DNA of 42,124 nucleotides from a virus: IMG/VR virus record IMGVR_UViG_3300029181_000007. One strand, written 5' to 3'. Of this stretch, positions 14,756-39,595 are shown piece after piece. Made by a program: the position numbers and the translations under genes. Under the pieces are notes generated by a model that saw only the letters and a program-made list of their open reading frames with translations, did no database searches and had not been told where the DNA came from. Every line of letters begins with the position of its first letter. Position 1 is the stretch's first letter.

Positions 14756-14848
14756 TCCTCTGGGAAGATTGATCGATGTGATGCTTTTCGTCGCTGATTT
14801 TGCCATTGTGGCTGGGTGCTTTCTGGCTGTTGCGCAGGCGATTGGCTT

Positions 14849-17840: not shown

Positions 17841-17914
17841 GCCGTTTTCGCTCAATGGTAGAGCTGCTGATTTGTAACCAGCGGACGCGGGTTCGATTCC
17901 TGCAGACGGCACCA
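17841..17914 (+). tRNA. trnT: tRNA-Thr (anticodon UGU), CCA encoded
   Basis: Acceptor gccgttt/agacggc. D arm gctc-aatggta-gagc. Anticodon arm gctga-TTTGTAA-ccagc. T arm gcggg-ttcgatt-cctgc. Ends ACCA. Confidence 0.85.
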
Positions 17915-18580: not shown

Positions 18581-19474
18581 ATGGCAGCAAAAGAAGGTAT
18601 CACCATGACCACCGATATCACCGTAGCCGCGCGTGAAATCGACTTTGTGACCCGTTTCCAGCGCAACTGGGACCATCTGCGCACCATTCTGGGCATCATG
18701 CGCCCCATCCGGATGCAGCCTGGCACCGTGCTCAAGAGCAAGTATGCACAGGGCACCCTGCAGAGCGGCACCGTGGGCGAGGGCGAAGAGATCCCGTTCA
18801 GCAAGTACACCGTCAAGGAGAAGGAGTACGGTAAGATCACCATCGACAAGTACGGCAAGTCTGTCACCCTTGAGGCAATCCAGAATTACGGCTACGATGT
18901 CGCCGTGCAGAAGACCGATGATGAGTTCCTGTACGACCTGACCGCTCTGGTAACGGATAAGTTCTACAAGTTCCTGAACACCGGCACCCTGAAGGGCACT
19001 CCCAAGACCTTCCAGATGGCGCTGGCACATGCCAAGGGCGCGGTCGAGAACAAGTTCAAGACCATGCATCGCACCGTGACCGGCGTTGTTGGCTTTGTCA
19101 ACGTGATGGACGTGTACGACTATCTGGGCAATGCCAATATCACCGTGCAGAACCAGTTCGGCTTCCAGTATATCAAGGACTTCATGGGCTACAACACCAT
19201 CTTCCTGCTGTCCGACAGTGAGATTGCGAAGGGAAAGGTTATTGCCACCCCGGTAGACAACATCGTCATGTACTATGTGGATCCTGCGGATAGCGAGTTT
19301 GCCCGCGCAGGTCTGGTCTACCGGACCGCAGGCGAGGCAAGCAACCTCATCGGCTTCCACACTCAGGCAAACTACAGCACCGCAACCTCCGAGAGCTACG
19401 CCATTATGGGCGTGACCCTGTTTGCTGAGTATCTGGACGGTATCGCTGTCGAGACCATTACCCCGGGCGAGTAA
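18581..19474 (+). CDS. Major capsid protein (HK97-fold type)
   Basis: 297 aa immediately after the scaffold gene. Composition and position are typical of SPP1-like siphovirus major capsid proteins. Confidence 0.85.
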   Translation: MAAKEGITMTTDITVAAREIDFVTRFQRNWDHLRTILGIMRPIRMQPGTVLKSKYAQGTLQSGTVGEGEEIPFSKYTVKEKEYGKITIDKYGKSVTLEAIQNYGYDVAVQKTDDEFLYDLTALVTDKFYKFLNTGTLKGTPKTFQMALAHAKGAVENKFKTMHRTVTGVVGFVNVMDVYDYLGNANITVQNQFGFQYIKDFMGYNTIFLLSDSEIAKGKVIATPVDNIVMYYVDPADSEFARAGLVYRTAGEASNLIGFHTQANYSTATSESYAIMGVTLFAEYLDGIAVETITPGE

Positions 19475-21933: not shown

Positions 21934-24699
21934 TTGAGCGCCACCCTCGGGCTGGACGACAGCGCCTACCGGCAAGGCGTGGAAGAGGCAAAGTCTCAGA
22001 CTAGGGACGCCGTCTCCACCATGATGAAAGATTATAATCGGCTGTACAGCGAGGTCATTCACCTTACGGCAGCCTACCAGAAATCACGGAGAGAGACCGG
22101 GGAAGCCTCCAAAGAAACTAAGGAATTTGCCCAGAAGCTGAAAGAAGCTCAGGCCCAACTCAATACCACGGCACAGGGACTGAAAACTGCGGAAGGGTAC
22201 ATGAACAGCTTTGGGGACGCCACATCGGGGTCCAGCAAGTCTCTGGCCGGTGCTATTGCACAAGGCACGATCATGGCGGGCCTTTTCTCAAAACTCAGCT
22301 CTGCCGCTCTTGCCGCTGCGAAAAGTTTCATTCAGTCTGGCATCGACTACAACGCCCAGATCGAGAAATACACCACCGGCTTTACCAATATGCTGGGCAG
22401 CGCGGAAGCTGCACAACAAGCCATGGCAAAGATTCAGGAGGACGCCGCCCGCACCCCGTTCAACGTCGAAGCTCTGACGCAGGCAAACCAGCTGCTTATC
22501 AGCGCGGGTGAAAACGCCGGGTATTCCGAAAAGGTCATTCTGGCACTTGGCAACGCAGTCAATGCGGCAGGCGGCGGCAATGCGGAACTGTCCCGCATGG
22601 CGCAGAACCTGCAGCAGATCGCCAACGTTGGCAAGGCTGCAAGCATTGACATCAAGCAGTTTGCTTATGCAGGCATCAACATCTATCAGGTTTTGGCCGA
22701 CTATACCGGTAAATCGGTGCAGGAAGTCCAGAACATGACCATCAGTTATGACTTGCTGTCTCAGGCTCTTATCGCAGCCAGCGAAGAGGGCGGGCGCTAC
22801 TACGGTGCTATGGAGACACAGAGCCAGACCATGAATGGGCGCATGTCTACCCTGCAGGACAATGTCAAGCAGCTGGCGGGATTGCTGACCGGCGATTTAT
22901 CCAGCGGCGTCGGCGTTGTAATCGGCAATCTGAACGACATGCTCGTCGCAGCACAGGAAGCCTACAAAACCGACGGGTGGATTGGTCTTGCGGGCGCAAT
23001 TACCGGGTTGAGCGGCCCAATTTCGTCCGTCAAATCCTGGTTTGAGGGCTTTGCTTCCAGTGCCTCCACCTGGCTGGACAAGCTGAGCTATAAGCTCAAT
23101 CGCTTTCTGGGGAAAGCGGCCACAGCGGATTACGACACATACGAGGAGTATGCAGACGCAAACCTCCGCCAAAGCAACCGCGACCGCTTACGGCAGCAAG
23201 CTCTTGCAGGCGTTGGCGTCAGCAATAAGAGCTGGTCCCAGCGGCAGGCGGAGTTGGCGGCAGCCAATGGCAACGGGGGCAGCTCCATCGTCACCACAGG
23301 CAGCGGCTCTTCCGGCAGAAAAAAATCCGGCTCCAAGTCCACCACCGAAACGGTCATTTCATCCATCTCCAGCACGGCTACCACCACCGCGCAGAATGCG
23401 CTGGGTACCGTGACCACCAGCATCCAGACCCTTGCCGAAAAGGTCAAGGACAGCTCCGGCAAGATCAAAGACCGCATCACCGAGACCACCACCACGACCG
23501 GCAAGGAGATGGTGAACGGTGTTGCCACGACCTTTAAGCAGGTCGAGACCAAAGTCAACGGCACGGTCACAAAGGTCACAAAGACCTATGACGACATGTC
23601 AAAAACGCTGCTGGGCACCTTTACCAACGTCTCGGAAACCACCTTTGACGGCATCACCACAAAGGTGCAACAGGCGGTGGAAAAGTACGCGGACGGCAGC
23701 GAGCATATCAAGAAAACCGTCACAGAGACCGGCCAGCGCGTCGGCGAGAACGGCGCGGAGACCTACGAGAAGATCATCACCTACATCGACGGCGTTCAAG
23801 ACAAGGTGAACGAGACCTCTACTCTTATCGACAAGAGCGTAAAGGGCACCCAGAGCCGCATTGACCAGCAGCTGAGTGAGGCTTCCGGCCAGCTGGATAA
23901 GGGCATTTTCGGGCTGGTAAAAAGCGCCTTTAGTGACGCCAAAAATGGCGACTGGGGCGGTCTCGCTCTAGATTTTGTCAATCTAATCTGGGGCGAAGTG
24001 TCGCAGGGCCAGCGCGAAACAATTTCCAAGTGGTTTGACAACGCCCTTGCCGCCGTGAACGAATCTTACTATGGCGGTGGTCTGAAAAGTGCATTTACCG
24101 CGGTGGAAAGCCTGTTTAAAGGCGGCATTGTGCCGGGCGTAAACAACGCCACGACGGCAGTTGATTCCTTCTCTAAGGTCGTGAGCGGGCTTGCGAGCTC
24201 TGGCGGCGTTGGCGGCGCACTTGGCAGCGTTGTGCAGGGTTTTTCTGGTATGGCTGGCGGCATCACGTCTGCGCTTGGCACTGTGGTGTCGTTCATCTCT
24301 GCAAACCCAGTCCTTGGCGTCATTCTCGGCGTTGGCGCTGTGGGTGCTGTAGCTGGCGGCATCGGGCTTTCGCTGTGGGCAAAAAACAAAAAGAGCAAAG
24401 ACCCGGTCAATAATTACAAGAGCCCGTTTGACGATGTGGGCGTTTACGACAGCCTGAGCGAGTTTTCTACGCGGTCTGCGATGCAGTACCGCGTGATCGG
24501 ACAGAGCAGCCACGCAGACAAGCAGACCAGCATTCTGGAGCGCATCGAGGAGCTTCTGGACGAGCATCTGCCTGCCATTGGCACCGGTCAGGTGGTCATG
24601 GATTCCGGCGAGCTGGTGGGCGTTATTTCGCCCAGGATGGCACAAAATGTTGACGCGCGCATCGGTGTGACCGTGACGCGGAAAGCGAGGGGTGTGTAA
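21934..24699 (+). CDS. Tail tape measure protein
   Basis: 921 aa, Ala/Gly/Ser-rich and helical. Hydrophobic Gly-zipper segment GVILGVGAVGAVAGGIGLSLWA. The start is uncertain: TTG at 21934, or CTG at 21919 which lies 9 nt after AGGAGG. Confidence 0.9.
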   Translation: MSATLGLDDSAYRQGVEEAKSQTRDAVSTMMKDYNRLYSEVIHLTAAYQKSRRETGEASKETKEFAQKLKEAQAQLNTTAQGLKTAEGYMNSFGDATSGSSKSLAGAIAQGTIMAGLFSKLSSAALAAAKSFIQSGIDYNAQIEKYTTGFTNMLGSAEAAQQAMAKIQEDAARTPFNVEALTQANQLLISAGENAGYSEKVILALGNAVNAAGGGNAELSRMAQNLQQIANVGKAASIDIKQFAYAGINIYQVLADYTGKSVQEVQNMTISYDLLSQALIAASEEGGRYYGAMETQSQTMNGRMSTLQDNVKQLAGLLTGDLSSGVGVVIGNLNDMLVAAQEAYKTDGWIGLAGAITGLSGPISSVKSWFEGFASSASTWLDKLSYKLNRFLGKAATADYDTYEEYADANLRQSNRDRLRQQALAGVGVSNKSWSQRQAELAAANGNGGSSIVTTGSGSSGRKKSGSKSTTETVISSISSTATTTAQNALGTVTTSIQTLAEKVKDSSGKIKDRITETTTTTGKEMVNGVATTFKQVETKVNGTVTKVTKTYDDMSKTLLGTFTNVSETTFDGITTKVQQAVEKYADGSEHIKKTVTETGQRVGENGAETYEKIITYIDGVQDKVNETSTLIDKSVKGTQSRIDQQLSEASGQLDKGIFGLVKSAFSDAKNGDWGGLALDFVNLIWGEVSQGQRETISKWFDNALAAVNESYYGGGLKSAFTAVESLFKGGIVPGVNNATTAVDSFSKVVSGLASSGGVGGALGSVVQGFSGMAGGITSALGTVVSFISANPVLGVILGVGAVGAVAGGIGLSLWAKNKKSKDPVNNYKSPFDDVGVYDSLSEFSTRSAMQYRVIGQSSHADKQTSILERIEELLDEHLPAIGTGQVVMDSGELVGVISPRMAQNVDARIGVTVTRKARGV

Positions 24700-28353: not shown

Positions 28354-29010
28354 ATGAGTAAAACAATCATGGACGTTTCCCGCTGGCAGGGCAACATCGA
28401 CTGGGACAAGGTCAAGGCCAGCGGCAAGGTGGACGGTGTGATGCTGCGGGCAATGGGCAACAGCAAGACAGGCGCACCCAGCAAGCCGTATCTGGACCCT
28501 ACCTTTGCCCGCAACTACACGGAGTGCACTCGGTTGGACATCCCGGTGGGCGTGTATGGCTACTTCAAGGCCGTCAGCCGAGCAGAAGCTGACAAGGAGC
28601 TGGCCCTGCTGAAAAGCGCCCTGATCGGCAAGACGCTGCGCCTGCCGGTGGCTGTGGACGTCGAGGACGCGTTGCCCGCGAAGCTTAGCAAAGAGGTGCT
28701 GACCGACCTGACCGCTTACGAGCTGAAAACGGTGCAGGACTGGGGATTTTACTCTATCTTGTACACCTACCTGAGCTATGCAGACAAGCACCTTTACATG
28801 ACCGGCGCGGCGCTCAAGCCCTATGATGTGTGGCTGGCGGCCTACCGTAGCCAGAAGCCCGCCACGGTATACCCCTATGGGATGTGGCAGCATACCAGCT
28901 CCGGCAGCGTGCCGGGCGTTGCAGGCAATGTTGACCTGTCCATTGCTTACAAGGACTATACCAGTATCATTTGCAAGAAGGGCCTGACCCGTCTCCGGGA
29001 GGGCAAATGA
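28354..29010 (+). CDS. Endolysin, glycoside hydrolase family 25 muramidase
   Basis: The DVSRWQGNIDWDKVKASG signature, plus VGVYGYF and a GNVDL tail. No cell-wall-binding domain is evident. Confidence 0.85.
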   Translation: MSKTIMDVSRWQGNIDWDKVKASGKVDGVMLRAMGNSKTGAPSKPYLDPTFARNYTECTRLDIPVGVYGYFKAVSRAEADKELALLKSALIGKTLRLPVAVDVEDALPAKLSKEVLTDLTAYELKTVQDWGFYSILYTYLSYADKHLYMTGAALKPYDVWLAAYRSQKPATVYPYGMWQHTSSGSVPGVAGNVDLSIAYKDYTSIICKKGLTRLREGK

Positions 29011-29396
29011 CCGAAAAAGAAGCTCTACTGTGGGTGCTGGGCATCCTGGGCAGCCTGTGCGCTGCGGTCATCACCATCGACAAGGTGCTGGACATCATCC
29101 ACAAGTACGTCAAAAATGCACAGGCCCCCGACGATGCGCAGAACAAGCGGCTTGACGAGATGGACAAGCGCTTGCAAACGTTAGAAACGGGCTATGCGCA
29201 ACATTCTTTGGCGCTTGGGCGCGATTTGTCCCGCTTCGGGGAAATCGACGAAGTAAACCGCCTGACGCTTGAAGCCGTTCGTGCCCTGCTGGAAGCACAG
29301 CTGACCGGAAACAACGTGCCCGCTATGCAGGCCAGCAAGGAAAAAATCGATAATTACCTCATGGAAGGAGTAACGAAACATGGAAGCAATGCTTAA
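29007..29396 (+). CDS. Membrane-anchored coiled-coil protein (lysis accessory or holin-like)
   Basis: ATGA coupling to the endolysin. N-terminal TM segment LLWVLGILGSLCAAVITI. Confidence 0.5.
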   Translation: MTEKEALLWVLGILGSLCAAVITIDKVLDIIHKYVKNAQAPDDAQNKRLDEMDKRLQTLETGYAQHSLALGRDLSRFGEIDEVNRLTLEAVRALLEAQLTGNNVPAMQASKEKIDNYLMEGVTKHGSNA

Positions 29397-29715
29397 TTTC
29401 ATCCCCGCACCCGTCGCAATCGTTCTCATCATCGTCGGCTTTGTGGCTCTGGCAGTCGGCGCTATCCGCATGGGCTATAAGCAGCTGGTCAAAGATCTGG
29501 CCTATGACCTCGTGTGCAAGGCCGAGGACAGCATCATGGGCAGCGGTCAGGGCGCGAAGAAAAAGAAGCAGGTCTTTGACGCGCTGCGTGCGGCCTGCCC
29601 TGCATGGCTGAAGCCTATCATCACGGATGAAGTGCTTGACGCGGTGATTGAAAAGGCCGTGAGCCTGATGAAGAAGGCACTGGAAGAAAAGAAGCCTACC
29701 ATCAACAAGGAGTAA
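29380..29715 (+). CDS. Holin, LL-H-family-like
   Basis: N-terminal TM segment FIPAPVAIVLIIVGFVALAVGAI. GSGQGAKKKKQVFDAL...VLDAVIEKAVSLMKK resembles LL-H holins. Confidence 0.6.
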   Translation: MEAMLNFIPAPVAIVLIIVGFVALAVGAIRMGYKQLVKDLAYDLVCKAEDSIMGSGQGAKKKKQVFDALRAACPAWLKPIITDEVLDAVIEKAVSLMKKALEEKKPTINKE

Positions 29716-29718
29716 CCC

Positions 29719-31695
29719 ATGATCGAGCAAAGCGTATCTCTCGCATCCAATGGCGTCGTCAAAGTGCCGGGCTATGAGCAGCTGGTGCGCTTTGGCTACA
29801 CAAAAAACCGGGGCGTGTACCGCCTTGCCGTCACTGCCGCCGGCGAGTGGGAGGGCCTGACCATCCGGGCGTTCTGGCACCTGCCGGGCGGCGGGGCACC
29901 GGCGTCCTCCCTGGTGGTGGACGGCTATGTGGCCGTGCCCGCCAGCGTGACCGTACAGCCTGGTGATGGCTGCATCACCTTTGAGGGAAGCGACGGCACC
30001 CGCACGGTGACAAGTGCAGATCTGCGGTATCGTGTCAGTGCCAACTCTGGCACAGAGGATGGCACAGAGCCGGAGCCGGGCACCCCTGCCTGGCAGGAGC
30101 TGGTGGGGGCCGTTCATACCGATGCCACCGCCGCAGAGCAGGCTAAGACCGATGCCCAGACCGCCGCCAGTGAAGCAGCCACCAGTGCGGGCAATGCAGC
30201 CCAGAGCGCTCAGGAAGCCGCTGACAGCTTACAGGAGCTGAAAGACGGCATTGCCGCTGGTAACTTCAAAGGCGAGAAGGGTGACAAGGGCGACACTGGC
30301 CCCATCGGCCCGGTCGGCCCGCAGGGTGAGCAAGGCCCTCAAGGCCCCACAGGCGCTATGGGTGCCACTGGCCCACAGGGTGAAACTGGTCCTCGTGGCG
30401 AGCAGGGGCCACAGGGTATTCAGGGCGAGCGCGGCCCGCAGGGTGCGCAGGGGCCGCAGGGCGAAAAAGGTGACACTGGGCCACAGGGGCCTAAAGGCGA
30501 CCCCGGCCCGGCAGGTGCAGACGGCAAAGATGGCATACAAATTGATGATACCACTGTGGGCCCCGACGCATGGAGCAGCAAGCACATCGTGGATATGCTC
30601 TGCCCGCCCATCTCTGAGACCGGCAACCCGGTGCAGTGCTACCCTGTGGAAAATTATCCGCTGGGGGTGACTGCCAGCTGGGAACCTGTGCAGGAGGGCA
30701 GCGGTGAGCCAAGTCCGGACAACCTCCGGCCTATCCACGGCAGGACGCGGGTAAATGTCGAACGGAGCGGGGAGAATCTGCTGAATATCGCTCCGTTTAC
30801 CAAGCTGACAAATCAAGGCGTCACCTATGAGTATGTAGCCAACGGCGGCGTACATATTTCTGGCACCGCATCGGCTAATGTGGTTAGCCCAATGTTTTCG
30901 GTTTGGTATCTGCCGCCCGGGAAATACTACGCGTCAGATTCGGGTGAAGGAATTGGCGCTAGTATTGTGGTGCAGAGAAATGGTAGAAACGTTTGGCTAA
31001 GCACCAAAGGCACTTTTGTGATTTTGGCTGGGGACGTAATTAAGTTTTGGTGCTTGAGTGTGAATAGCGGCATAACTGTTGACAAGACGCTATACCCGTA
31101 CATTGTCCCTGGCACCACTGCCCCCACCACCTACGCCCCTTACACCGGCCAAACCGCCACCCTCACTCTGCCCCGCACCATCTACGGCGGCACGGTGGAT
31201 GCAGTGACGGGAGAGGGGCAGGAAACGTGGAGACTTGTGACGCTGGATGGGACGGAGAGGTGGATACGACAAGACAACGCAACAAATAATTATTCTTGTA
31301 GCATCAAACCTGTTGCAAACAGCTTAACGAATTGTTTGTGCAGCATGTTCCAGTGGAAAATGTATGCTTACGCGAGTAATGGAAATGAAGGATATTTTGC
31401 GTTTGAAAGCAGCGGGGAAAGAGTGAATTTTTGCGTTACTGAAACGTGGGAGACAGTAGATGCTTGGAAATCCTACCTCGCCGCCCAGTATGCGGCAGGA
31501 ACCCCCGTGCAAATCGCATACAAGCTGGCAACACCTGAACCTTTCACCGCCACAGGAGCACAGCCTATCCCTGCCCTCCCCGGCGTGAACACCCTGATGA
31601 CCGATGCCGATGCCTTGACCGTGACAGGCAGAGCAGACCCCATCAAACGCATTACTGACCTTGAGGACGCAGTAGCGTCCATGACAACGACCTAA
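29719..31695 (+). CDS. Collagen-like triple-helix repeat tail fibre protein
   Basis: 29 uninterrupted G-X-Y triplets (30271-30531). An Ala-rich coiled coil lies upstream. The C-terminal globular region has AT-rich patches. Confidence 0.75.
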
Positions 31696-32162: not shown

Positions 32163-32340
32163 CAGACAGAAGATGACCGCCGCCATCAAAAACGCACCGC
32201 TTGGGAGGGTAGACCGTAAGATAGCCTTACTGCGGTACGTTGAGCGGCTCCCACTGCCGGACATTGCAGCACAGACCCATTACAGCCGGACGGCGATAGG
32301 CTACCGGCTGAAAGGTATTGAAAAAATGTTGAATGTGTGA
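32047..32340 (+). CDS. Sigma-70 region-4-like HTH protein (start uncertain)
   Basis: C-terminal DRKIALLRYVERLPLPDIAAQTHYSRTAIGYRLKGIEKML. No SD is visible at the TTG (32047). It may be joined to 31944-32162 by a frameshift, or start internally. Confidence 0.45.
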   Translation: MPCLAIWCATPDSCRSLSGSVLPVAAARVVLPTALKGLDRQKMTAAIKNAPLGRVDRKIALLRYVERLPLPDIAAQTHYSRTAIGYRLKGIEKMLNV

Positions 32341-32346
32341 TATAAT
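32318..32346 (+). promoter_or_regulatory. Strong sigma-70-type promoter TTGAAA-17-TGaTATAAT
   Basis: -35 at 32318-32323, a 17-nt spacer, TG at 32338-32339, and -10 at 32341-32346. Confidence 0.5.
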
Positions 32347-32352
32347 ATTTTT

Positions 32353-32445
32353 ACGATCCGAGTGTATGTAGGACGCATGTTTAAGGCTGATTCTACAAAC
32401 GCAACAAAGCGGCAGGTTATTCCAGAGCTTGCCGCTTTTCTTTTT
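32353..32445 (+). ncRNA. Putative short transcript (about 90 nt) between the promoter and the late-operon terminator
   Basis: Bounded by the promoter at 32318-32346 and the terminator at 32407-32445. It contains only a 24-codon ORF with a poor SD. Confidence 0.3.
32407..32445 (+). terminator. Rho-independent terminator (end of the late operon)
   Basis: aagcggcag / cttgccgctt stem, 10-12-nt loop, then TTTTCTTTTT. Confidence 0.7.
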
Positions 32446-32469: not shown

Positions 32470-32667
32470 CAACAAATCCACCCGGCCTTTCGAAGAAGCG
32501 CATTAGGGTGGATATTTGCCAGCTAGCCCAGTGCTTTATCTGGGAATGAAAAAAGCGGTTGCCAGATAGGCGCCGACCAGTCTCCCACCCGCCTACTTAC
32601 AGTGCGTACCATGCGGGAGACGCAGAAATCCCCCGGTGTTCCGTTTGGAGCATTGGGGGATTTTTTT
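32470..32667 (+). ncRNA. Putative structured small RNA (about 200 nt)
   Basis: It starts after the extended -10. Hairpins are atccaccc/gggtggat (8 bp), tatctgg/ccagata (7 bp) and tctccc/gggaga (6 bp). It ends in a long terminator hairpin. No credible CDS. Confidence 0.3.
32626..32667. terminator. Bidirectional rho-independent terminator
   Basis: aaatccccc...gggggattt stem extended by ggtgttcc/ggagcatt wobble pairs, with a gttt loop. TTTTTTT follows on the plus strand. It abuts the stop of the minus-strand gene. Confidence 0.65.
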
Positions 32668-33373
32668 ACTTTTTCTTCAATTCCTCAAGCCTGCTGGAAA
32701 GTTCTTCTTCCCATCCTTCATGTTCTTTAAGGTACGGGGCGTAGATCAGTTCTTCGGCCTCTTTGCGGGCCGCAACGGCTTCTTCGATTGTGTCATAGCT
32801 GCCGAGATGATATTGCTTGCGTTGGAAATTGATATATGCACGCCATCGACCGTGGCAGTCTTTGCACACACCATTCGCGCCAGAAGTGGAATTTTTATTG
32901 ATATGGCCTCCGACCGCCCTTGTGCGAATCGACATAAGGGAAGAGCCACCCGCGTAAGCTGTGCTGTGAATTGCCCCGGTTTTCTCTCCAATGTCCCTGT
33001 TGCAATCTGCGCAATGCTGGATCAGAGGAAGCCTTGTGATCTTTACGGTGGTTTCCTTCCCACATTTCGGGCAAATAGCACGGCACAGAAAATGACCTGA
33101 CCTCTTTTCGGGCAAAACTTCCAATACTTTCCATCCGTTGATGACGTGTCCCTCTTTTTCCTTTGCCTTTTTCAGTCTTGCGGTTGTCAGGCCTGGCTTT
33201 TGCCCTCGATTCGCGCAAGACAGACAGCTGCGGCTTTTGCCAAGACGCAGGGAGCTGTCATACACGTCTTTTACCACTCCGCACTCACACTGGCATGTGT
33301 AGTAGTGCGGCTTTTCAGACGGCGCAAGTACCGTCCACTTTCCAAAATGCTTTCCAGTCAAATCTTCTGCCAT
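32666..33373 (-). CDS. AP2-domain DNA-binding protein with duplicated zinc-ribbon modules
   Basis: Two modules (GKWTVL...CQCECG...SCLSC and NGWKVLEV...CPKCG...CADC). C-terminal GVCKDCHGRWRAYINFQRKQYHLGSYDTIEEAVAARKEAE is the AP2 pattern. Confidence 0.65.
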   Translation of the reverse strand: MAEDLTGKHFGKWTVLAPSEKPHYYTCQCECGVVKDVYDSSLRLGKSRSCLSCANRGQKPGLTTARLKKAKEKEGHVINGWKVLEVLPEKRSGHFLCRAICPKCGKETTVKITRLPLIQHCADCNRDIGEKTGAIHSTAYAGGSSLMSIRTRAVGGHINKNSTSGANGVCKDCHGRWRAYINFQRKQYHLGSYDTIEEAVAARKEAEELIYAPYLKEHEGWEEELSSRLEELKKK

Positions 33374-33383
33374 AACATTTTCC

Positions 33384-33701
33384 TCAGATCAGGCCGTAGT
33401 GCTCGGCCAGAAGGAAGCGTACATACACCGGGCACTCCCTCTCGCCCAGGCACCAGCCCTGCACCGTGCGGCGCGGGATGCCCGCACCCTTTGCAAAGGC
33501 GGTCTGGCTGATGCCGGATGCCACCACCATCTCCCGCACGCTCATGCGGGAGACGTCCCAGAGATGGGACAGGCGGGCGGTCTCGGCGTCCAGATCGGCG
33601 CAGCCATCGGAATCGTCCGGGATGCTGAGGGTGACGTTACCGAGAAAAACTTCTTTCGGCTGCTTGGCAGCCATGCCAAAAAGTTCTGCTTTGCTATACA
33701 T
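33384..33701 (-). CDS. XRE-like helix-turn-helix protein
   Basis: MSVREMVVASGISQTAFAKGAGIPRRTVQGWCLGERECPVYV is an HTH pattern. AAAGGAAG SD. Confidence 0.6.
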   Translation of the reverse strand: MYSKAELFGMAAKQPKEVFLGNVTLSIPDDSDGCADLDAETARLSHLWDVSRMSVREMVVASGISQTAFAKGAGIPRRTVQGWCLGERECPVYVRFLLAEHYGLI

Positions 33702-33764
33702 GGTTGACTTCCTTTCTTTCGCATGATAATATGTTCGTGTACCTCCATGGTACGTCTTTCACAA

Positions 33765-33806
33765 AAGCCCCGTCAGGTGTTCGCTGCACTTGACGGGGCT
33801 TTTTTA
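33765..33806. terminator. Bidirectional terminator
   Basis: aagccccgtcag / cttgacggggctt stem of 12 bp, with an A-run upstream and TTTTTT downstream. Confidence 0.65.
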
Positions 33807-33807
33807 T

Positions 33808-34020
33808 TTAGTAGATCTCAACGCCCAGTTTTTCGGCGGCGGCTTCAACGACTTCTTCAAACGAGGGGCCGCGATTCGGGTCGTTCCAGTCGTAATCGCC
33901 AGCGGATGCAGCTTCCCACTCTTCTTCCATGTCAGCTGCCTTGCACAGCTCGGTGCACAGCTCGCAATCCCAGACATCGGACTTGCGGATGTCAGCGGCG
34001 ATTTCAATAGCGTTTCTCAT
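33808..34020 (-). CDS. Small highly acidic protein
   Basis: GGAGGT SD. 70 aa rich in D/E/W (DMEEEWEAASAGDYDWNDP). Driven by the operator-bearing promoter at 34069-34097. Confidence 0.6.
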   Translation of the reverse strand: MRNAIEIAADIRKSDVWDCELCTELCKAADMEEEWEAASAGDYDWNDPNRGPSFEEVVEAAAEKLGVEIY

Positions 34021-34068
34021 AATTTTGTACCTCCATGTTGTTGTGTGTTGGTGTCTTTCACTGTCTTT

Positions 34069-34097
34069 ATTATACGCTCATTGAGCGCAAAAGTCAA
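34069..34097 (-). promoter_or_regulatory. Near-consensus promoter TTGACT-17-TATAAT (minus strand) with an operator in the spacer
   Basis: The reverse complement of 34061-34100 reads ggcTTGACTtttgcgctcaatgagcgTATAATaaagacag. Confidence 0.6.
34075..34087. promoter_or_regulatory. Operator-like 13-bp palindrome CGCTCA-T-TGAGCG
   Basis: Perfect 6+1+6 palindrome inside the promoter spacer. Confidence 0.55.
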
Positions 34098-34116
34098 GCC
34101 TATTTGTAAAATTTTG

Positions 34117-34129
34117 TGCTCAATGAGCA
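34117..34129. promoter_or_regulatory. Operator-like 13-bp palindrome TGCTCA-A-TGAGCA
   Basis: Second copy of the GCTCA-N-TGAGC motif, with its centre 42 bp from the first. Confidence 0.5.
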
Positions 34130-34235
34130 CTTTTTTTCTTTTGGCAGAATAGAGCATTTTTGTCCTTCGTTGGTCGCTCGTTGCCTCTCCCGCCGGGCGG
34201 CTCTGCTACACTGGGCGCAAAGGAGGGCGGTCCCG

Positions 34236-34613
34236 ATGTGGCGCAAATTTAACCCAAACCCTCACGGGAGCAGCGTCGGAGATTGCGCCGTGCGTGCTGT
34301 AGCGGCTGCCACAGGGCAGAGCTGGGAGCAGGTCTACATTGGATTGGCGCTGACCGGATTTGCCCTCGGCGATATGCCTAGCGCAAACCGCACATGGGGC
34401 GCGTACCTTCAAAAGCGCGGGTTTAAGCGCCGTTTGGTGGAGGCAGACTGCACCACCTGTTACACCGTGGCAGATTTTGCCCGGGAGTACCCGCACGGCG
34501 TGTATGTGCTTGGCTGCTCCGGGCACGTCCTGACTGTGATCGACGGCGAGTGGTGGGACAGCTGGGACAGTGGCGCAGAATGCCCGATTTACTACTGGTA
34601 TAAGGAGGAGTAA
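34236..34613 (+). CDS. Hypothetical protein with papain-like Cys/His pattern (GDC...GH)
   Basis: AAAGGAGGG SD. NPNPHGSSVGDCAVRAVAAATG...CSGHVLTVIDGEWWDSWDSG. The peptidase call is inference only. Confidence 0.55.
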   Translation: MWRKFNPNPHGSSVGDCAVRAVAAATGQSWEQVYIGLALTGFALGDMPSANRTWGAYLQKRGFKRRLVEADCTTCYTVADFAREYPHGVYVLGCSGHVLTVIDGEWWDSWDSGAECPIYYWYKEE

Positions 34614-34616
34614 ACG

Positions 34617-35066
34617 ATGCCTTACAATCCGTATGCGTATCAGATGCCGACATACTACGGCCAGCCAATGCCGGACAACCTCACTCAACTCAGGCAGGGA
34701 GTGGGCTATCAGTCTCCCATGATGCAGCAGCCGACAGCCCAGACAGCACAGGCTACGCCCTCCATCATCTGGGTGCAGGGCGAGGAGGGCGCAAAAGCAT
34801 ACATGGTTGCCGCAGGAAACAGCGTGCTCCTGATGGACAGCGAAAACAGCGCGTTTTACATCAAAAGCACCGATGCAAGCGGTATGCCGCTTCCCCTCCG
34901 GGTGTTTGACTACAAGGAGCGCACCACAGCCGCAAAAACGCCGCCACAAACGGCGCAGCAGTCTGGCGTGGAGTTTGTCACCCGGGCAGAGTTTAACGCG
35001 CTGGCAGCCCGCTGTGCGGCGCTGGAAAAGCAAGAGCCCACAAAGCCTGAAACGGAGGCCAAGTAA
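34617..35066 (+). CDS. Pro/Tyr/Gln-rich N-terminus protein with a compact beta-rich core
   Basis: AAGGAGGAG SD. MPYNPYAYQMPTYYGQPMP...IIWVQGEEGAKAYMVAAGNSVLLMDSENSAFYIKS. Confidence 0.55.
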   Translation: MPYNPYAYQMPTYYGQPMPDNLTQLRQGVGYQSPMMQQPTAQTAQATPSIIWVQGEEGAKAYMVAAGNSVLLMDSENSAFYIKSTDASGMPLPLRVFDYKERTTAAKTPPQTAQQSGVEFVTRAEFNALAARCAALEKQEPTKPETEAK

Positions 35067-35068
35067 TT

Positions 35069-35293
35069 ATGTCAAACCCTCTTTTTAACGTTCTGAGCGG
35101 CGGTATGCCCGCCATGTCCGGCCCTATGGGTCAGTTTGGTCAGCTGATGCAGCAGTTCCAGCGGTTCCGTGCAAACTTTCAAGGCGACCCAAAAGCAGAA
35201 GTGCAAAAGCTGCTGCAATCCGGCAAAATGTCACAAAACCAGCTGAACCAATTACAGGCGATGGCGAAACAGTTTCAGCAGTTTCTTCATTAA
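35069..35293 (+). CDS. Small Gln-rich protein
   Basis: 74 aa, with Q-rich repeats (QLMQQFQRF, QNQLNQLQAMAKQFQQF). Confidence 0.5.
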   Translation: MSNPLFNVLSGGMPAMSGPMGQFGQLMQQFQRFRANFQGDPKAEVQKLLQSGKMSQNQLNQLQAMAKQFQQFLH

Positions 35294-35356
35294 GTCGTAA
35301 CCGTGGCCACGGTTCAAGCATAAAAATCATTCAAAACACACGAAAGGAGTACAAAA

Positions 35357-36133
35357 ATGTCTCTTTCTTCCGATTCTGCGGTTCTGACCATGCCTGTTCA
35401 GCCCGCAAACACCAATGGCGGCAACGGCTTTGGCTTTGGCAATGATGGCGCATGGTGGATCATCATCCTGTTCCTGTTCGCCTTCTGCGGCGGCTGGGGA
35501 GGCAACTGGGGAGGCAATGGCAACACCGGTGCCGGTGTCGTTGACGGCTACGTCCTGACCTCCGATTTTGCCAACATCGAGCGCAAGATGGATGGTATCA
35601 ACAACGGCATGTGTGATGGCTTCTACCAGCAGGCGCAGCTTGTCAACGGCGTGCAGCAGACCGTGAACAACGGCTTTATGTCCGCAGAGATCAGCCGCGC
35701 AAACCAGCAGGCGGCGTTCATGCAGCAGCTGTTTGCCATGCAGATGCAGCAGCAGGAGTGCTGCTGCGAGAACCGCTCTGCCATTCAGGGCGTCAACTAC
35801 AATTTGGCCACCCAGTCCTGCGAGACCCGGAACACGGTGCAGAACACCACCCGGGACATCATCGACAACCAGAACCAGAACGCCCGCGCCATCCTTGACG
35901 CCCTGACCGCACAGCGCATCGAGGCAAAGGACGCAAAGATCGCTGAGCAGGGTCAGCAGCTGTTCGCAGCACAGCTTGCAGCTTCCCAGGCGGCGCAGAA
36001 TGAGACTCTCAAGGCATACATGAGCGGTCAGCTGGCCTACTACAACCCGCGTCCCGTTCCTGCCTTCCCGGTTCCTGCGCCGTACCAGTACGGTAACTGT
36101 GGCACCGGATGCGGCTGTAACGGCTGCGCATAA
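35357..36133 (+). CDS. Gly-rich membrane protein with a Q/N-rich body and Cys-rich C-terminus
   Basis: AAAGGAG SD. GGNGFGFGNDGAWWIIILFLFAFCGGWGGNWGGNGN is YjcZ-like. It also has QECCCEN and ends GNCGTGCGCNGCA. Confidence 0.6.
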   Translation: MSLSSDSAVLTMPVQPANTNGGNGFGFGNDGAWWIIILFLFAFCGGWGGNWGGNGNTGAGVVDGYVLTSDFANIERKMDGINNGMCDGFYQQAQLVNGVQQTVNNGFMSAEISRANQQAAFMQQLFAMQMQQQECCCENRSAIQGVNYNLATQSCETRNTVQNTTRDIIDNQNQNARAILDALTAQRIEAKDAKIAEQGQQLFAAQLAASQAAQNETLKAYMSGQLAYYNPRPVPAFPVPAPYQYGNCGTGCGCNGCA

Positions 36134-36204
36134 CCGAATCACGGCAACTGACTGCAAATTGTATGTAGTCTGTTCAGCCCCTGAGCTGATTTTGCAAACC
36201 AGAG

Positions 36205-36231
36205 CGCCGGGGCAGCAGTCCCGGCGTTTTT
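36205..36231 (+). terminator. Rho-independent terminator
   Basis: cgccggg-gcagcagt-cccggcg followed by TTTTT. Confidence 0.65.
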
Positions 36232-36252
36232 ATTATGAAAGGAGCCGATAAA

Positions 36253-36675
36253 ATGGCTGAATTTAGCAACTCTAACACCGTCAGCGTGGCGGCAGGTGAA
36301 AACCTTCCCCTGACCGAGACCGCGGTGAAAGCCCCTGCCTGCATCATGCACCGTGAGGGCAGCGGCCTCGTGACCCTGCGCGGTCTGACCAATCAGTGCA
36401 GGGCCCGCTTCAAGGTAATCTTTGGCGGCAATGTCGCCATTCCCACCGGCGGCACTGTGGGGCCCGTTTCCGTGGCGCTGGCTGTCGGCGGTGAGTCGCT
36501 GACCAGTGCGACTGCCATTGTCACCCCGGCGGCAGTCGAAAATTACTTCAACGTTTTCGTGGCCGCGTTCATCGAGGTGCCGCGCGGCTGCTGCGTGACC
36601 GTGGCGGTTAAAAATACCAGTACGCAGGCAGTCAGCATTGCAAACAGCAACCTGATCGTTGAGCGGGTAGCATAA
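36253..36675 (+). CDS. Beta-rich protein resembling BclA C-terminal / C1q-TNF-like jelly-roll domains
   Basis: GAAAGGAG lies 8 nt before the ATG. Alternating beta pattern NTVSVAAGENLPL...SGLVTLRG...RFKVIFGGNVAI...VALAVGGESL...VTVAVKNTS...SNLIVERV. The fold call comes from pattern recall only. Confidence 0.55.
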   Translation: MAEFSNSNTVSVAAGENLPLTETAVKAPACIMHREGSGLVTLRGLTNQCRARFKVIFGGNVAIPTGGTVGPVSVALAVGGESLTSATAIVTPAAVENYFNVFVAAFIEVPRGCCVTVAVKNTSTQAVSIANSNLIVERVA

Positions 36676-36691
36676 GAAAGGAGATAAAGTC

Positions 36692-37093
36692 ATGCTGGAT
36701 AAACTGAATCATCTGAAGGATGAGATGTGCGACGAGCTCATGGAACTGACCAACAAAAAGAACCGTTCCCCGGGTGATGTTGAGATGATCGGCGAGATTG
36801 TGGATATCATTTTGGACATCCACCGCATCGAGGATTACTGTGAGGGCGGCGAGTACAGTCGTGCGGGCGAGTGGGCTGCTGACATGCGCGGGACTTTCGG
36901 CCACGATGCCGGAAACGGTTACAACCGGGGCAGCAGCTATGCCAACCGAGGCCGTCACTATGTTCGTGGGCATTACTCCCGCACGGATGGCCGTGAGCGC
37001 ATGATCTCTGACATCGAGGACATGATGCAGGAGGCCACCGGCGCAGAGCGCGATGCATACAAGCGGGCCGCTGACATCTTGCGCAACGCATAA
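36692..37093 (+). CDS. Hypothetical protein (helical ends, Gly/Arg/Tyr-rich centre)
   Basis: AAAGGAGA SD. The centre reads GNGYNRGSSYANRGRHYVRGHYSRTDGRE. Confidence 0.5.
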   Translation: MLDKLNHLKDEMCDELMELTNKKNRSPGDVEMIGEIVDIILDIHRIEDYCEGGEYSRAGEWAADMRGTFGHDAGNGYNRGSSYANRGRHYVRGHYSRTDGRERMISDIEDMMQEATGAERDAYKRAADILRNA

Positions 37094-37110
37094 GAAAGGG
37101 GGCGGCAGGC

Positions 37111-37440
37111 ATGGACATTGACGAGATCAACACCCACATTCACAAGCTGAAATGTGGTTCAACGGACTGGCAGAGCGTGGAAAAGCTTGCCGCCCTCTGC
37201 ACTGTGCGGGACGAGCTGGAAGAAAAGCAGGCACGTGAAACGCAGACCCAGGCATTGCCGCCCACGGATTACCGGGCGGCGTACTCCACGGCAACGGAAC
37301 CGCAAAGCGACTTTGTGACGGCTGCCAGCTCTGTTCCTTTCGGCGGTCTGATGCAGGTGCTTGACGAGCACATGAAGGCAATAAAGCTGGTGTACCCGAA
37401 AGAGTATGAGCTAGTGATGCGGAAGATAAGCGACTTGTAA
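37111..37440 (+). CDS. Hypothetical protein
   Basis: AAAGGGGG SD. 109 aa. Last gene before attP. Confidence 0.5.
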   Translation: MDIDEINTHIHKLKCGSTDWQSVEKLAALCTVRDELEEKQARETQTQALPPTDYRAAYSTATEPQSDFVTAASSVPFGGLMQVLDEHMKAIKLVYPKEYELVMRKISDL

Positions 37441-37506: not shown

Positions 37507-37554
37507 GGAAGCTGACAAATTGATAATTATTCACGTTGAAACGCTAAATAAATT

Positions 37555-37602
37555 TGATTTGTAATCAGTGGGTTGCAGGTTCAACTCCTGTCACCAGCTC
37601 CA
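37555..37602 (+). other. attP core candidate: 3' two-thirds of a tRNA-Thr(UGU) gene (anticodon loop to CCA)
   Basis: tga-TTTGTAA-tcagt-gggtt-gcagg-ttcaact-cctgt-caccagc-t-cca. No matching 5' acceptor or D arm lies upstream. It is 110 bp from the integrase stop. Confidence 0.65.
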
Positions 37603-37607
37603 AAAAT

Positions 37608-37712: not shown

Positions 37713-38846
37713 TCAGTACTTCATCTTCTGCATTTCCCGCAACAAATATGTCGGGTCGTTGTGTGACACGTACTTGTTTGCCGTTGTGGAGAAATTCTTG
37801 TGACCGAGGATTGCCTGCACAGCGGTTTTTTCCAGACCGCACTCCACCATTTTACTGCTGGCCGTATGACGCAGAGTATGCGGGTGCACCCCCTCTATAT
37901 GGCATTCCTGCATCAGGGCACGGAATTTTGTAGCCACATTGCGTTTGTCCAGCTTTGTGCCGGCCTTGGATGGTATCAGCCATTCGCACCCGCTGTTCAG
38001 CATCCAAAAAGCTACCGTCTTGTAAATCGGTTCAAGAATCGGGATAATGCGGTTTTTGCCCGCCTCGGTCTTTTCGCCGCCCTGCATATAGTGCTCCTTC
38101 AGATGAACGTCCTCACAGCGCATAGAGAGCAGTTCATCAATGCGCATACCGGTGTACAGCAAAACCATGGCGATTTGAGCCGTCTGCCCGAATTTTGGGT
38201 CATTCTGGTAGATGCTGATCTGCTCTATCTCGGCTGCAGTCAGAGTGCGCTCCGCTTTTCCTGTAGCCGCCGGGAGCTGCAGCAGCATGGCGTAATTTTT
38301 GTTTATGATGTCCTGCGCCATTGCCCACTCGCAGATCTGGCTGAAAAGCGTGCGCTGCTTTTCGCAGGAGCTGCGGGAGAGCCCTTTTTCCACCATTGCG
38401 TCAATGACCTGTTGATAATCTGCCGCTTTTAAGTCCCGCAATTGTCGGTCGTATAGCGGCGCAGCCTTTGCATAGGCCAGCTCGTACCCCTTTTGCATGT
38501 CCGTGCTAAGCTTGTCAAATTTGGGCTGCGCTTTCCATTGGACATAGGCATCCGCAAAGGTGCATTTCAGACGCGCTGCGGGGGTGTTCTGGGCGTTGTA
38601 AGCGTCCAGCGCTTGTACTGCTTCGCCTGCCGTTTCAAACGTGCCCAGAACATCTCTGCGGGCTGTGAGTGCAACATACGGTCTTGCCCGCGTCCCACTC
38701 AGTTTATACACGCTGCCGCTGCCCTTTGGACGGCGGCGCTTTTTTCTTTGCTGCGGGGCGGCTTCCGGCTGTTTCTTCCCGCACCACGGACAAAAAGAAG
38801 CGCCATCCGGGATCTCCTTCCGGCAACATGGTCTTATGCACTTCAT
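37713..38846 (-). CDS. int: Tyrosine site-specific integrase with N-terminal zinc ribbon
   Basis: CCRKEIPDGASFCPWCGK. Catalytic-region motifs TGMRIDELLSM (R), HTLRHT (H-x-x-R), AILGH and ANKYV (Y). Confidence 0.9.
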   Translation of the reverse strand: MKCIRPCCRKEIPDGASFCPWCGKKQPEAAPQQRKKRRRPKGSGSVYKLSGTRARPYVALTARRDVLGTFETAGEAVQALDAYNAQNTPAARLKCTFADAYVQWKAQPKFDKLSTDMQKGYELAYAKAAPLYDRQLRDLKAADYQQVIDAMVEKGLSRSSCEKQRTLFSQICEWAMAQDIINKNYAMLLQLPAATGKAERTLTAAEIEQISIYQNDPKFGQTAQIAMVLLYTGMRIDELLSMRCEDVHLKEHYMQGGEKTEAGKNRIIPILEPIYKTVAFWMLNSGCEWLIPSKAGTKLDKRNVATKFRALMQECHIEGVHPHTLRHTASSKMVECGLEKTAVQAILGHKNFSTTANKYVSHNDPTYLLREMQKMKY

Positions 38847-38849
38847 AGC

Positions 38850-39437
38850 TTACTCCTTTTTTCGCCCGATGTAACCCTGCGCGCCTTTTTCCGAAGCTTC
38901 ACGCCCGGCCTTGTAATTTACCTTCAAATCGTCTATTGGCGGCTGTGGGTCGTCCGGGCAGGGGTCTAATCCCATGTTCTGGGCAAAGTTGTATTGGTTG
39001 ATGATGATTCCGCACACGCTGACCCGGTTGTTGAGTGGGCAGTGCAGGTTGGCGGCTACCTCGGAAATCACAGCGGACGGGCTGCTGCCATGGTTGCCCT
39101 TCAGCACGAAAAGAAGCAGTCGTTTCGTCAGCGGTGGCAAGTTTACCACAAAGCGGCACAGCTTTGCGTCCAGCTCTGTGTCGGTCTTTCCGTCATCGGG
39201 TGTCGCGTACAGCTCCGGGTGGATCATCTCCATAAACACGGCGATGGGGGATGCCCCGCAGGCCGTACACCAATCCATGATCTCGTCGCTGTCCGGGCTG
39301 GTGCAGCCTTTTTCCCAGCTCTGCACCGTCCGCTCACCCTTTTCGATGCGTCTTGCGATCTCCACTTGGCTCAGGCCGGCAGATACCCGGGCCTTTGCAA
39401 GCGCTTTCCCGATCTGGGTTGCCGTAAAATAACTCAT
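38850..39437 (-). CDS. XRE-family HTH regulator (CI-like repressor candidate) upstream of int
   Basis: Internal ATG after GGGGGTGA. HTH AGLSQVEIARRIEKGERTVQSWEKG. 3-nt gap to the int start. Confidence 0.7.
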   Translation of the reverse strand: MSYFTATQIGKALAKARVSAGLSQVEIARRIEKGERTVQSWEKGCTSPDSDEIMDWCTACGASPIAVFMEMIHPELYATPDDGKTDTELDAKLCRFVVNLPPLTKRLLLFVLKGNHGSSPSAVISEVAANLHCPLNNRVSVCGIIINQYNFAQNMGLDPCPDDPQPPIDDLKVNYKAGREASEKGAQGYIGRKKE

Positions 39438-39475
39438 ACTTTCACCCCCGTAAAACCAACGTGTTTTTAACAGAA

Positions 39476-39502
39476 AATGGCGCAGATTTTTTCTGCGCCA
39501 TT
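39476..39502. promoter_or_regulatory. Perfect 11-bp inverted repeat aatggcgcaga-ttttt-tctgcgccatt
   Basis: Read directly. It lies between the repressor-like gene and the divergent promoter, so it could be an operator or a minus-strand terminator. Confidence 0.5.
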
Positions 39503-39510
39503 CGACAAAA

Positions 39511-39539
39511 AATATCCGTATTTTGTTTTCCAACGGCGC
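39511..39539 (+). promoter_or_regulatory. Putative promoter with extended -10 TGgTAGAAT
   Basis: TAGAAT at 39534-39539 with TG at 39531-39532. A weak -35-like TTGTTT lies upstream. Confidence 0.35.
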
Positions 39540-39595
39540 ATGGTAGAATTTGGAACATAAGACATAAATATGCACAAAAGAAAGGGGAAAACAAA

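Follow-up and report, generated by a model that had tools for sequence, protein, structure and literature searches.

A conserved gene module next to the attachment site of a temperate gut-Clostridia siphophage: a candidate accessory structural operon

The IMG/VR virus record IMGVR_UViG_3300029181_000007 is a stretch of 42,124 nucleotides (nt), here called the window, that holds the genome of a temperate siphophage with a GC content of about 55%. Near one end lies a block of seven genes (p1 to p7, positions 34236-37440, plus strand) that an initial annotation, made from the sequence letters, had singled out as a possible lysogenic-conversion module. Judged by comparison of related loci, most of this block (p2-p3-p4-[RNA]-p5-p6) is a deeply conserved module found in thousands of Clostridia phages. 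It looks like an operon of temperate gut-Clostridia siphophages and not like a casually acquired moron; the phages seem to keep it as a fixed component and not as swappable cargo.

The seven-gene operon and its predicted products

The genes of the block, with their PHROG families, are:

34236-34613, plus strand: p1, 125 amino acids (aa), phrog_3754
34617-35066, plus strand: p2, phrog_21718
35069-35293, plus strand: p3, 74 aa, phrog_22984
35357-36133, plus strand: p4, 258 aa, phrog_16490
36253-36675, plus strand: p5, 140 aa, phrog_20016
36692-37093, plus strand: p6
37111-37440, plus strand: p7, 109 aa

All seven open reading frames (ORFs) are on the plus strand, and each is preceded at normal spacing by a strong Shine-Dalgarno sequence (AAGGAGG, GGAGG or AAAGGAG), so that the picture of seven well-signalled, co-oriented genes holds. 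The intergenic gaps from p1 to p7 are 3, 2, 63, 119, 16 and 17 nt. The start of p5 was set at 36253, giving 140 aa, and not at 36235, because of the position of the Shine-Dalgarno sequence and because homologues have 140 aa. The GC fraction of the module (0.56-0.58) equals that of the rest of the phage.

What do these genes encode? Searches of all seven window proteins against Pfam, NCBIfam and PADLOC gave no match (for PADLOC, none below E 0.01). Five have PHROG matches, all to families without known function, and p6 weakly matches another. Profiles built from diverse members, run against Pfam for p1, p2 and p4 and against the Protein Data Bank (PDB) for p1, p2, p4, p5 and p6, returned nothing informative. 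No database names any module protein, and the earlier statement that none of the seven fits a standard phage function stands. In a hydropathy scan only p4 had a hydrophobic segment, and none of the seven had an N-terminal signal-like stretch.

Two of the products, p5 and p1, could be modelled with confidence. The AlphaFold2 model of p5 is a ten-strand jelly roll (predicted local distance difference test score, pLDDT, 95.1). Foldseek matches it to PDB entries 9h38, 9h3d, 7r1m, 8d02, 1wck and 2r6q with probability 1.0, E-values of 6e-7 to 5e-6 and TM-scores of 0.72-0.78. The best matches are the F-BclA head, ExsF, ExsFA, BxpB and the C-terminal domain (CTD) of BclA, which come ahead of tumour necrosis factor (TNF) ligands and phage fibre knobs; sequence identity to the exosporium proteins is 8-16%. 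There was no Pfam match to p5, PF18573 (BclA_C) included, and its profile gave no relevant match in PDB. A vicinal cysteine pair (CC) is invariant, and a search for the family returned at least 7900 clusters at 90% identity. The model and its matches strongly support the prediction that p5 is a stand-alone TNF/C1q jelly roll nearest to Bacillus exosporium ExsF, BxpB and BclA-CTD, and bear out the C1q/BclA-C-like call made from the sequence.

The AlphaFold2 model of p1, for which 120 homologues of 50-62% identity were used, has a pLDDT of 94.9. In this model Cys17 opens a helix (residues 17-26), His97 opens a strand (97-102) and Asp108 closes the adjacent strand (105-108); all three residues are invariant in 121 sequences. 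The Foldseek matches in PDB are non-significant (best E 0.14, TM-scores 0.38-0.43); the papain-like proteases AvrPphB, Josephin-2, staphopain and Tae4 stand at the top, and viral PRO/DUB domains are also in the top list. Sequence searches of Pfam and PDB gave no match, and BFVD holds the same fold in many uncharacterised phage proteins. The model and the invariant Cys, His and Asp support a minimal papain-like fold for p1, in agreement with the papain-like pattern first noticed. At least 7185 clusters at 90% identity were recovered for the family.

The predicted features of the other products are mostly compositional, and the composition claims made for p2, p3, p4 and p6 hold on recount. The p4 protein starts with a conserved peptide, MSLSSDSAVLTMPVQPAN, followed by a Gly/Trp-rich region with a short hydrophobic anchor (core WWIIILFLFAF). 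Its Q/N-rich, coiled-coil-like body (26% Q+N) carries a nearly invariant CCC triplet and leads into a Pro-rich and then a Cys-rich tail, GNCGTGCGCNGCA. The initial description of p4 as a Gly-rich transmembrane protein with a Q/N-rich body and a Cys-rich tail is correct as to composition, but the core is only about 13 residues long, which makes a transmembrane segment plausible but borderline. Since the N-terminal flank of this segment has no positive charge, the positive-inside rule would place the long C-terminal part in the cytoplasm. The p4 family comprises 1410 clusters at 50% identity. Its best 150 matches are without exception short (about 75-340 aa) and have no added parts, and the p4 profile drew from PDB only insignificant matches of coiled-coil type (keratin, HA2).

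In p2, a P/Y/Q-rich, low-complexity N-terminal part (48% P+Y+Q in residues 1-48) precedes a small beta domain with the conserved pattern WVxGExGAKxY...YxKSxDASG, and a helix forms the C-terminus; no match to p2 came up in Pfam or PDB, not even for a profile of 51 sequences. p3 is Q/M-rich (20% Q) and helical. The centre of p6 is of low complexity (55% G+R+Y+S), with helical parts on its N- and C-terminal sides. p7 is helical too; it is the least conserved member and occurs in only part of the modules that resemble the window's.

Module types, haplotypes and a conserved RNA element

A scan anchored on p5, taking one genome per species, yielded 80 loci, mostly labelled Oscillospiraceae, Lachnospiraceae, Ruminococcus, Subdoligranulum, Agathobacter, Butyricicoccus and other Clostridia. 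Iterated hidden Markov model (HMM) searches of the loci and of phage records recovered the order p1-p2-p3-p4-p5-p6(-p7) almost everywhere. The families thus co-occur in the same gene order in about 80 divergent loci, and synteny is kept down to about 30-45% protein identity. Butyrivibrio phage Ceridwen and Dulem viruses 33, 35 and 39 also have the module. Three types can be told apart:

Type 1 (the window): p1-p2-p3-p4-[RNA]-p5-p6(-p7)
Type 2: without p1 and p7; a longer p6, then a protein of about 105 aa with an HExxH...E motif
Type 3: p2-p3-p4 followed by two other proteins, one of 123 aa (Cys-rich, beta) and one of 212 aa (low-complexity/helical); p5 and a peptidase undetected

p6 is a member of both type-1 and type-2 modules, the long 'alt-p6' of type 2 merging into the same HMM family. 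Type 3 was found in contigs of 57-60 kb that carry the window's endolysin (locus L226, 12526-15420; L175, L176, L210, L243 and others). Its Cys-rich protein, which begins MACKTSCRLCPH, had no sequence match in PDB, and the N-terminus of the 212-aa partner is rich in R, E, D and Y. In L226, the type-3 contig read in detail, a ParA-like ORF lies downstream. Of the IMG/VR relatives that share the endolysin, 53 could be assessed: type 1 is present in 30 and type 3 in 22, and one lacks both.

The 105-aa protein of type 2 lies directly after p6, in modules that lack p1 (L085, 10214-10531; L151, 11407-11733; L136, 11044-11364; and 15 more loci). Its residues H57, E58, H61 and E77 are invariant in 20 sequences. 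Against PDB it matches the minigluzincin MJ1213 (E 0.003), and 10-15 of the 20 members have weak SprT-like, DUF6782 or M78 matches. The 50 loci with complete flanks divide into 34 with p1 only, 11 with the Zn-peptidase only, none with both and five with neither. Because the two are mutually exclusive in these loci, a small peptidase appears to belong to the system; the pattern suggests that p1 is the exchangeable accessory peptidase of the type-1 module, with an activity that is putative and predicted from its model. Known folds resemble both proteins, namely the small papain-like peptidases for the Cys-His-Asp fold of p1 and the minigluzincins (MJ1213/projannalysin) for the HExxH...E protein. 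The module differs from both groups in that its matches are weak and in that the broad phage family of p1 is wholly uncharacterised.

In 11 divergent type-1 loci an ORF of about 50 aa, 'p0' (RLIAAGM..A....W[FY]..QG...LE.Y), abuts p1 on its upstream side (L002, 5213-5365; L146, 7849-8001; L113, 927-1115; and eight more loci). Neither the window nor its close relatives have it.

The close relatives of the window (L003-L082, n=80) differ sharply along the module. Identity to the window is 94-99% for p5 and 86-98% for p1, whereas p2, p3 and p4 are bimodal, about 45 loci being at or above 70% and about 33 below 50%. The recombination break points between these p2-p4 haplotypes (window 34621-36097) fall at the p1/p2 junction and in the RNA element described below, and the N-terminal 18 residues and Cys-rich tail of p4 are kept across both haplotypes. 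Because their haplotypes co-vary, p2, p3 and p4 can be taken as one co-adapted cassette. The co-variation argues for physical interaction of the three proteins, and it leaves room for diversifying selection on them.

Between p4 and p5 the module has a structured RNA, made up as follows:

36131-36236, plus strand: structured RNA of about 100 nt, starting at the p4 stop codon
36150-36170, plus strand: hairpin P1, variable
36172-36189, plus strand: hairpin P2, after a short conserved linker
36204-36226, plus strand: intrinsic terminator P3 with a GC-rich stem; T-run 36227-36231

The internal terminator of the initial annotation is thereby confirmed, stem and T-run alike, and it is conserved: a simple scan detected a hairpin with a T-run in 54 of 82 loci. 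RNAalifold found compensatory changes in 14 of 15 pairs, and double changes occur in all 15 pairs of the alignment made with a covariance model. In that alignment 96.5% of cells pair, against 78% for shuffles and 39-58% for slid partners; because the alignment was fitted to the model, it leans towards the structure. Run over 1.33 Mb from 88 sources, the covariance model hit 64 of them exactly once each. Wherever its place was checked, the element is directly 3' of p4, even in loci where unrelated genes intrude between p4 and p5; type 3 has a weaker, two-hairpin version at the equivalent place, and Rfam has no family for the element. The simplest reading is that it is the 3' end and attenuator for p4. 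A terminator or attenuator in this position implies that p2-p4 would outnumber p5-p7.

The p4-p5 junction is also an insertion hot spot. Foreign genes occur downstream of the RNA element in L119, L122, L125, L127 and L150; inspected by eye from sequence, they include a DNA cytosine methyltransferase and PAPS-reductase-like, radical-SAM and HNH/AP2 genes. They look like unrelated mobile cargo and are not parts of the module.

Placement of the module and its possible role

The features on either side of the module in the window are:

32666-33373, minus strand: HNH/AP2 endonuclease gene
33384-33701, minus strand: helix-turn-helix (HTH) protein
33808-34020, minus strand: 70-aa ORF
34069-34129, no strand assigned: divergent promoter region with two palindromes, a neighbour of the module and part of the minus-strand cassette 32666-34020
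37554-37604, plus strand: attP core, the 3' 49 nt of a tRNA-Thr(UGU); a boundary outside the module
37713-38846, minus strand: tyrosine integrase
38850-39575, minus strand: repressor-like gene

Many prophage contigs of close relatives in IMG/VR stop at about window position 37606, so the block would be attR-proximal in the integrated state, as had been supposed. Across loci, the downstream neighbours include 15 tyrosine integrases, three serine recombinases and four scaffold proteins, and the upstream neighbours about 14 endolysins and 11 Phage_min_cap2 proteins. The commonest placement is the distal end of the late and lysis genes, adjoining attP and the integrase. In 11 loci, one of the two large genes closest to the module on its upstream side is Phage_min_cap2 (minor capsid), and in four a scaffold gene follows the module. 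In Dulem virus 35 the module lies between the minor capsid gene and the scaffold and major capsid genes.

The block had also been credited with its own operator-bearing switch. The elements of the switch exist: palindromes GCTCA(T/A)TGAGC at 34076-34086 and 34118-34128 flank a strong minus-strand promoter (34097..34069). They do not travel with the module, however. Homology of the 80 close relatives to the window begins at 34157 or 34212, and the three minus-strand genes are present in just 7, 34 and 20 of these relatives, which identifies 32520-34150, from the late operon's end to p1, as a hypervariable cargo slot; the relatives have different sequence, about 1.2-1.8 kb, in this slot. The switch belongs to the variable cargo, and may influence p1 in the window phage. 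That its operators are shared with the main immunity region was considered and rejected, the motif being present only at the two sites upstream of p1.

Which function do these data favour? We tentatively prefer, while holding it short of probable, the reading that the phages inherit the module vertically as an accessory structural operon and use it in lytic growth, its products being made late, assembled in the cytoplasm and matured by a protease. The main product would be p4, an oligomeric and probably trimeric coiled-coil stalk, held by its short Gly/Trp-rich hydrophobic anchor and presumably stapled by disulfides through the CCC triplet and the Cys-rich tail. The conserved terminator/3'-UTR (untranslated region) after p4 would lower expression of the downstream genes. 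p5 would be an ExsF/BxpB-type TNF/C1q trimer with vicinal cysteines, acting as a cap or adaptor, and p2 (P/Y/Q), p3 (Q/M) and p6 (R/G/Y/S low-complexity) would interact with these proteins as partners or chaperones. A mini-peptidase would mature one component, this being p1 in type 1 and the minigluzincin-like HExxH protein in type 2. The operon would form the distal part of the late (lytic) transcription unit, and its product might be an accessory virion or ejection structure, or a structure for assembly or egress. Assembly inside the cell, as with virions and spore coats, is suggested by the absence of signal-like N-termini and the restriction of hydrophobic sequence to p4, which also make a structure on the vegetative cell surface unlikely. 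The initial suggestion of a self-assembling or envelope/surface structure is accordingly strengthened as to self-assembly, by the composition and the two folds, but not as to the vegetative surface; likewise the products have a structural character, but one small predicted peptidase (p1) is among them, so that the reading of a structure rather than enzymes holds in part.

In favour of this reading are the gene order kept in about 80 divergent loci, the very large families, the phage-like GC, the near-fixation among relatives that share the endolysin, the minor-capsid and scaffold neighbours, and the presence in Ceridwen, for which only lytic growth was seen. It is also favoured by the frequency of canonical sigma-70 promoters upstream, which is in no excess over chance (2 of 64 loci vs 10 of 191 control windows), by the exosporium-like fold of p5, the CC and CCC motifs, the restriction of hydrophobic sequence to p4, the covarying terminator after p4 and the mutual exclusion of the two small peptidases.

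Several observations weigh against this preferred reading. The slot between lysis genes and attR, beside the integrase, is the classical position for lysogenic conversion, and a recombinase is downstream in at least 18 loci. Of 64 loci, 40 have a strong terminator in the 400 nt before the module, compared with 14 of 191 control windows, and in some loci, the window included, an extended -10-like TGnnAAAAT lies just past this terminator. No conserved promoter motif was seen upstream of p1 (TGnnAAAAT-like sequences occur only in a subset of loci). An upstream terminator with no excess of promoters fits both an insulated moron with a weak or unusual promoter and an antiterminated distal segment of the late genes. 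The link to a protease may be loose, the p1/Zn split reflecting just two clades: p1 is common outside the module (Bacillus Tsamsa-like, Geobacillus GBK2 and Lak phages have it on its own), and type 3 has no detectable peptidase. A protein with a transmembrane-like segment is unusual in a siphovirus virion, the tape measure aside. Lastly, specific docking of p4 to p5 is unsupported because the class of p4 does not covary with p5. A docking of the N-terminal peptide of p4 into p5, on the pattern of the BclA leader and ExsF, was considered and rejected for lack of covariation above background. The p4 N-termini fall into two classes, for which nearest-neighbour agreement in p5 is similar to that in p1, p2, p3 and p6, and the best single column reaches 77% against a 60% baseline. 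A link between p4 leader class and protease type was likewise rejected, there being no correlation.

Lysogenic conversion or superinfection exclusion is a serious rival, though in our view an unlikely one, on account of where the module maps, of the terminators upstream of it and of the p2-p4 haplotypes. In this rival a membrane-anchored assembly expressed from the prophage would change the lysogen, for example by blocking DNA entry of related phages or by aggregation. In the window, as in most loci, the module has the lysis genes on one side and attR/integrase on the other, an insulating terminator precedes it in the 40 of 64 loci noted above, and a divergent operator-bearing promoter region is found upstream in the window. 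Two deep p2-p4 haplotypes at less than 50% identity, next to p1 and p5 at 86-99%, are moreover typical of diversifying specificity determinants. This rival must contend with a switch that is not conserved with the module, with near-fixation in relatives and a phage-like composition, with a minor-capsid neighbour in 11 loci and presence in a phage reported as lytic, with the lack of export signals beyond the p4 anchor, and with the lack of precedent for an exclusion system of five to seven genes rich in low-complexity sequence. The phage in question is Ceridwen, for which the authors saw only lytic growth, reported no integrase and suggested virulence. Morons of Firmicutes siphophages between lysis genes and attR do resemble the module in map position (in the window and most loci) and in the frequent upstream terminator. 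They differ in that the module is near-fixed and deeply conserved, has the phage's own base composition and has the minor-capsid neighbours. Sporadic presence and deviant composition, as expected of a moron, are not seen: 52 of the 53 assessable relatives carry some version, and GC equals that of the phage. The position in the window, from lysis genes to attR beside the integrase, is as expected of one. Taken with the deep synteny and with Ceridwen, these findings leave the lysogenic-conversion moron of the initial annotation only weakly supported.

Anti-phage defence or abortive infection by the prophage, with a sensor, a small protease and p4 as membrane effector, seems improbable to us. The location at the prophage end, a hot spot for cargo, the interchangeable small proteases, the membrane-active-looking region of p4 and the p2-p4 haplotype diversity would all suit such a system, but PADLOC gave no matches, nuclease, NTPase and other typical defence domains are absent, structural and low-complexity features dominate the composition, and the synteny is deep and stable, not patchy. 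Nor do we give much credence to a bacteriocin-like toxin-immunity cassette, which is the least credible of the readings considered: here the peptidase would process p4, a Gly-rich membrane toxin with a leader, and immunity would come from p2/p3. The first 18 residues of p4 are conserved across divergent haplotypes, class II p4 N-termini (SLSDIAAxTGN) loosely recall double-glycine leaders, p1 is papain-like as are C39 leader peptidases, and p2, p3 and p4 co-vary. However, there is no transporter, a p4 of 258 aa with a long coiled-coil body is unlike known bacteriocins, its leader class does not follow the protease type, and p5 and p6 are left without a role.

The structural matches of p5 raise the question of spores. 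If a sporulating lysogen made the proteins in its mother cell to decorate the spore, as an exosporium- or appendage-like surface module, it would be clear why the best matches of p5 are all exosporium proteins. ExsF too is a stand-alone trimer, which captures the N-terminal leaders of collagen-like proteins (PMC12357932), and the N-terminus of BclA is reported to be proteolytically trimmed (PMC12357932). The module resembles the exosporium nap formed with ExsF (ExsFA/BxpB) and BclA in Bacillus in the stand-alone p5 fold of about 140 aa, in having Cys-rich components without signal peptides, as coat and exosporium proteins do, and in the N-terminal trimming of a partner, which for the module is a proposal; a 658-aa collagen-like protein is also encoded 2.5 kb upstream. 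We nevertheless consider a spore-surface role very improbable. Identity of p5 to exosporium proteins is just 8-16%, with no sequence-level relationship between nap and module; coat and exosporium families were matched by no module protein; there is no ExsY/CotY-like protein and no leader peptide was found. The collagen-like protein lacks the exosporium leader (TIGR03720), only Scl/Lcl collagen models matching. The module is phage-encoded; one carrier is a phage isolated on Butyrivibrio fibrisolvens, and others are contigs that bear the labels Subdoligranulum, Agathobacter and Lachnospira, organisms which are not known to sporulate.

Two phage devices invite comparison with the module. P22-like tail needles with a TNF-like knob (the knob is described in PMC3741392) offer an analogy of architecture, an elongated coiled coil combined with a TNF-fold trimer that acts at a membrane, and p5 also has Foldseek matches to the phage spike/fibre knobs 9eul and 8ke9. 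In the module, however, stalk (p4) and knob (p5) are separate proteins, and the stalk carries Cys clusters besides its hydrophobic anchor; needles and module showed no homology, and a place for p4 and p5 in the virion is a proposal. Spanins (Rz/Rz1) were considered and rejected: p4 is i-spanin-like in outline only, there is no signal-like N-terminus and so no candidate for a lipoprotein o-spanin, and most loci are labelled as families of Clostridia, whereas spanins go with diderm hosts. These families are monoderm.

The folds themselves (papain-like, TNF/C1q, minigluzincin) are known, but no known multi-gene system matches the module; what sets it apart is a lack of assignment, which is no proof of a new mechanism. 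A literature search on prophage BclA/C1q-like proteins, on ExsFA/BxpB in phages, on TNF-like capsid decoration and on phage minigluzincins found no description of it. It is possible, though rather doubtful, that we are dealing with an undescribed phage structural system, in which a p4 stalk, a p5 trimer and prion-/RGG-like partners would form a protease-matured, cysteine-stapled fibre or lattice, with stoichiometry set by the terminator RNA. Its use in infection would be common to thousands of phages of gut Clostridia, for instance as an accessory membrane-penetrating or egress device or as a membrane-anchored assembly platform.

Among the most abundant human-gut viruses are the temperate phages of Lachnospiraceae and Oscillospiraceae, most of whose genes have no assigned function. 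The present analysis delineates the module: its core, three types, two folds modelled with confidence and an RNA element that acts in cis. Its carriers include the cultured lysogens Lachnospira intestinalis CLA-AA-H89B (L121, type 2) and Lachnospiraceae bacterium JLR.KK009 (L122, type 1) and one isolated phage, Ceridwen, which infects B. fibrisolvens DSM 3071; this turns a hypothetical block into a directly testable system. If its action falls in lytic growth, siphophages would have a new accessory machine; if the lysogen expresses it, it would be a very common modification of gut commensals by phages.

The rest of the window

The remaining genes are laid out as follows:

12066-13349, plus strand: large terminase
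13346-14755, plus strand: portal
14816-15865, plus strand: MuF-like head protein
18581-19474, plus strand: major capsid protein
21934-24699, plus strand: large ORF, 921 aa, probably the tape measure
up to 28175, plus strand: tail proteins
28354-29010, plus strand: endolysin
29380-29715, plus strand: holin-like protein
29719-31695, plus strand: collagen-like protein, 658 aa
up to about 32340, plus strand: small ORFs

The collagen-like protein has a long Gly-X-Y region and is encoded after the endolysin and holin, outside the tail block; it matches Scl/Lcl collagen adhesin models and tail-fibre PHROGs. A second tRNA-Thr(UGU) gene lies inside the head gene cluster at 17841-17914, the attP core being derived from a different tRNA-Thr(UGU), so that the phage encodes a tRNA with the anticodon of the gene into which it integrates. 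There is also a tRNA-Trp at 11246-11319. Finally, a near-consensus promoter (TTGAAA-17-TATAAT with a preceding TG) is followed about 60 nt on by a strong terminator at 32406-32438. This segment (32318-32438) has no ORF between promoter and terminator, and could be a small RNA or an orphan leader.

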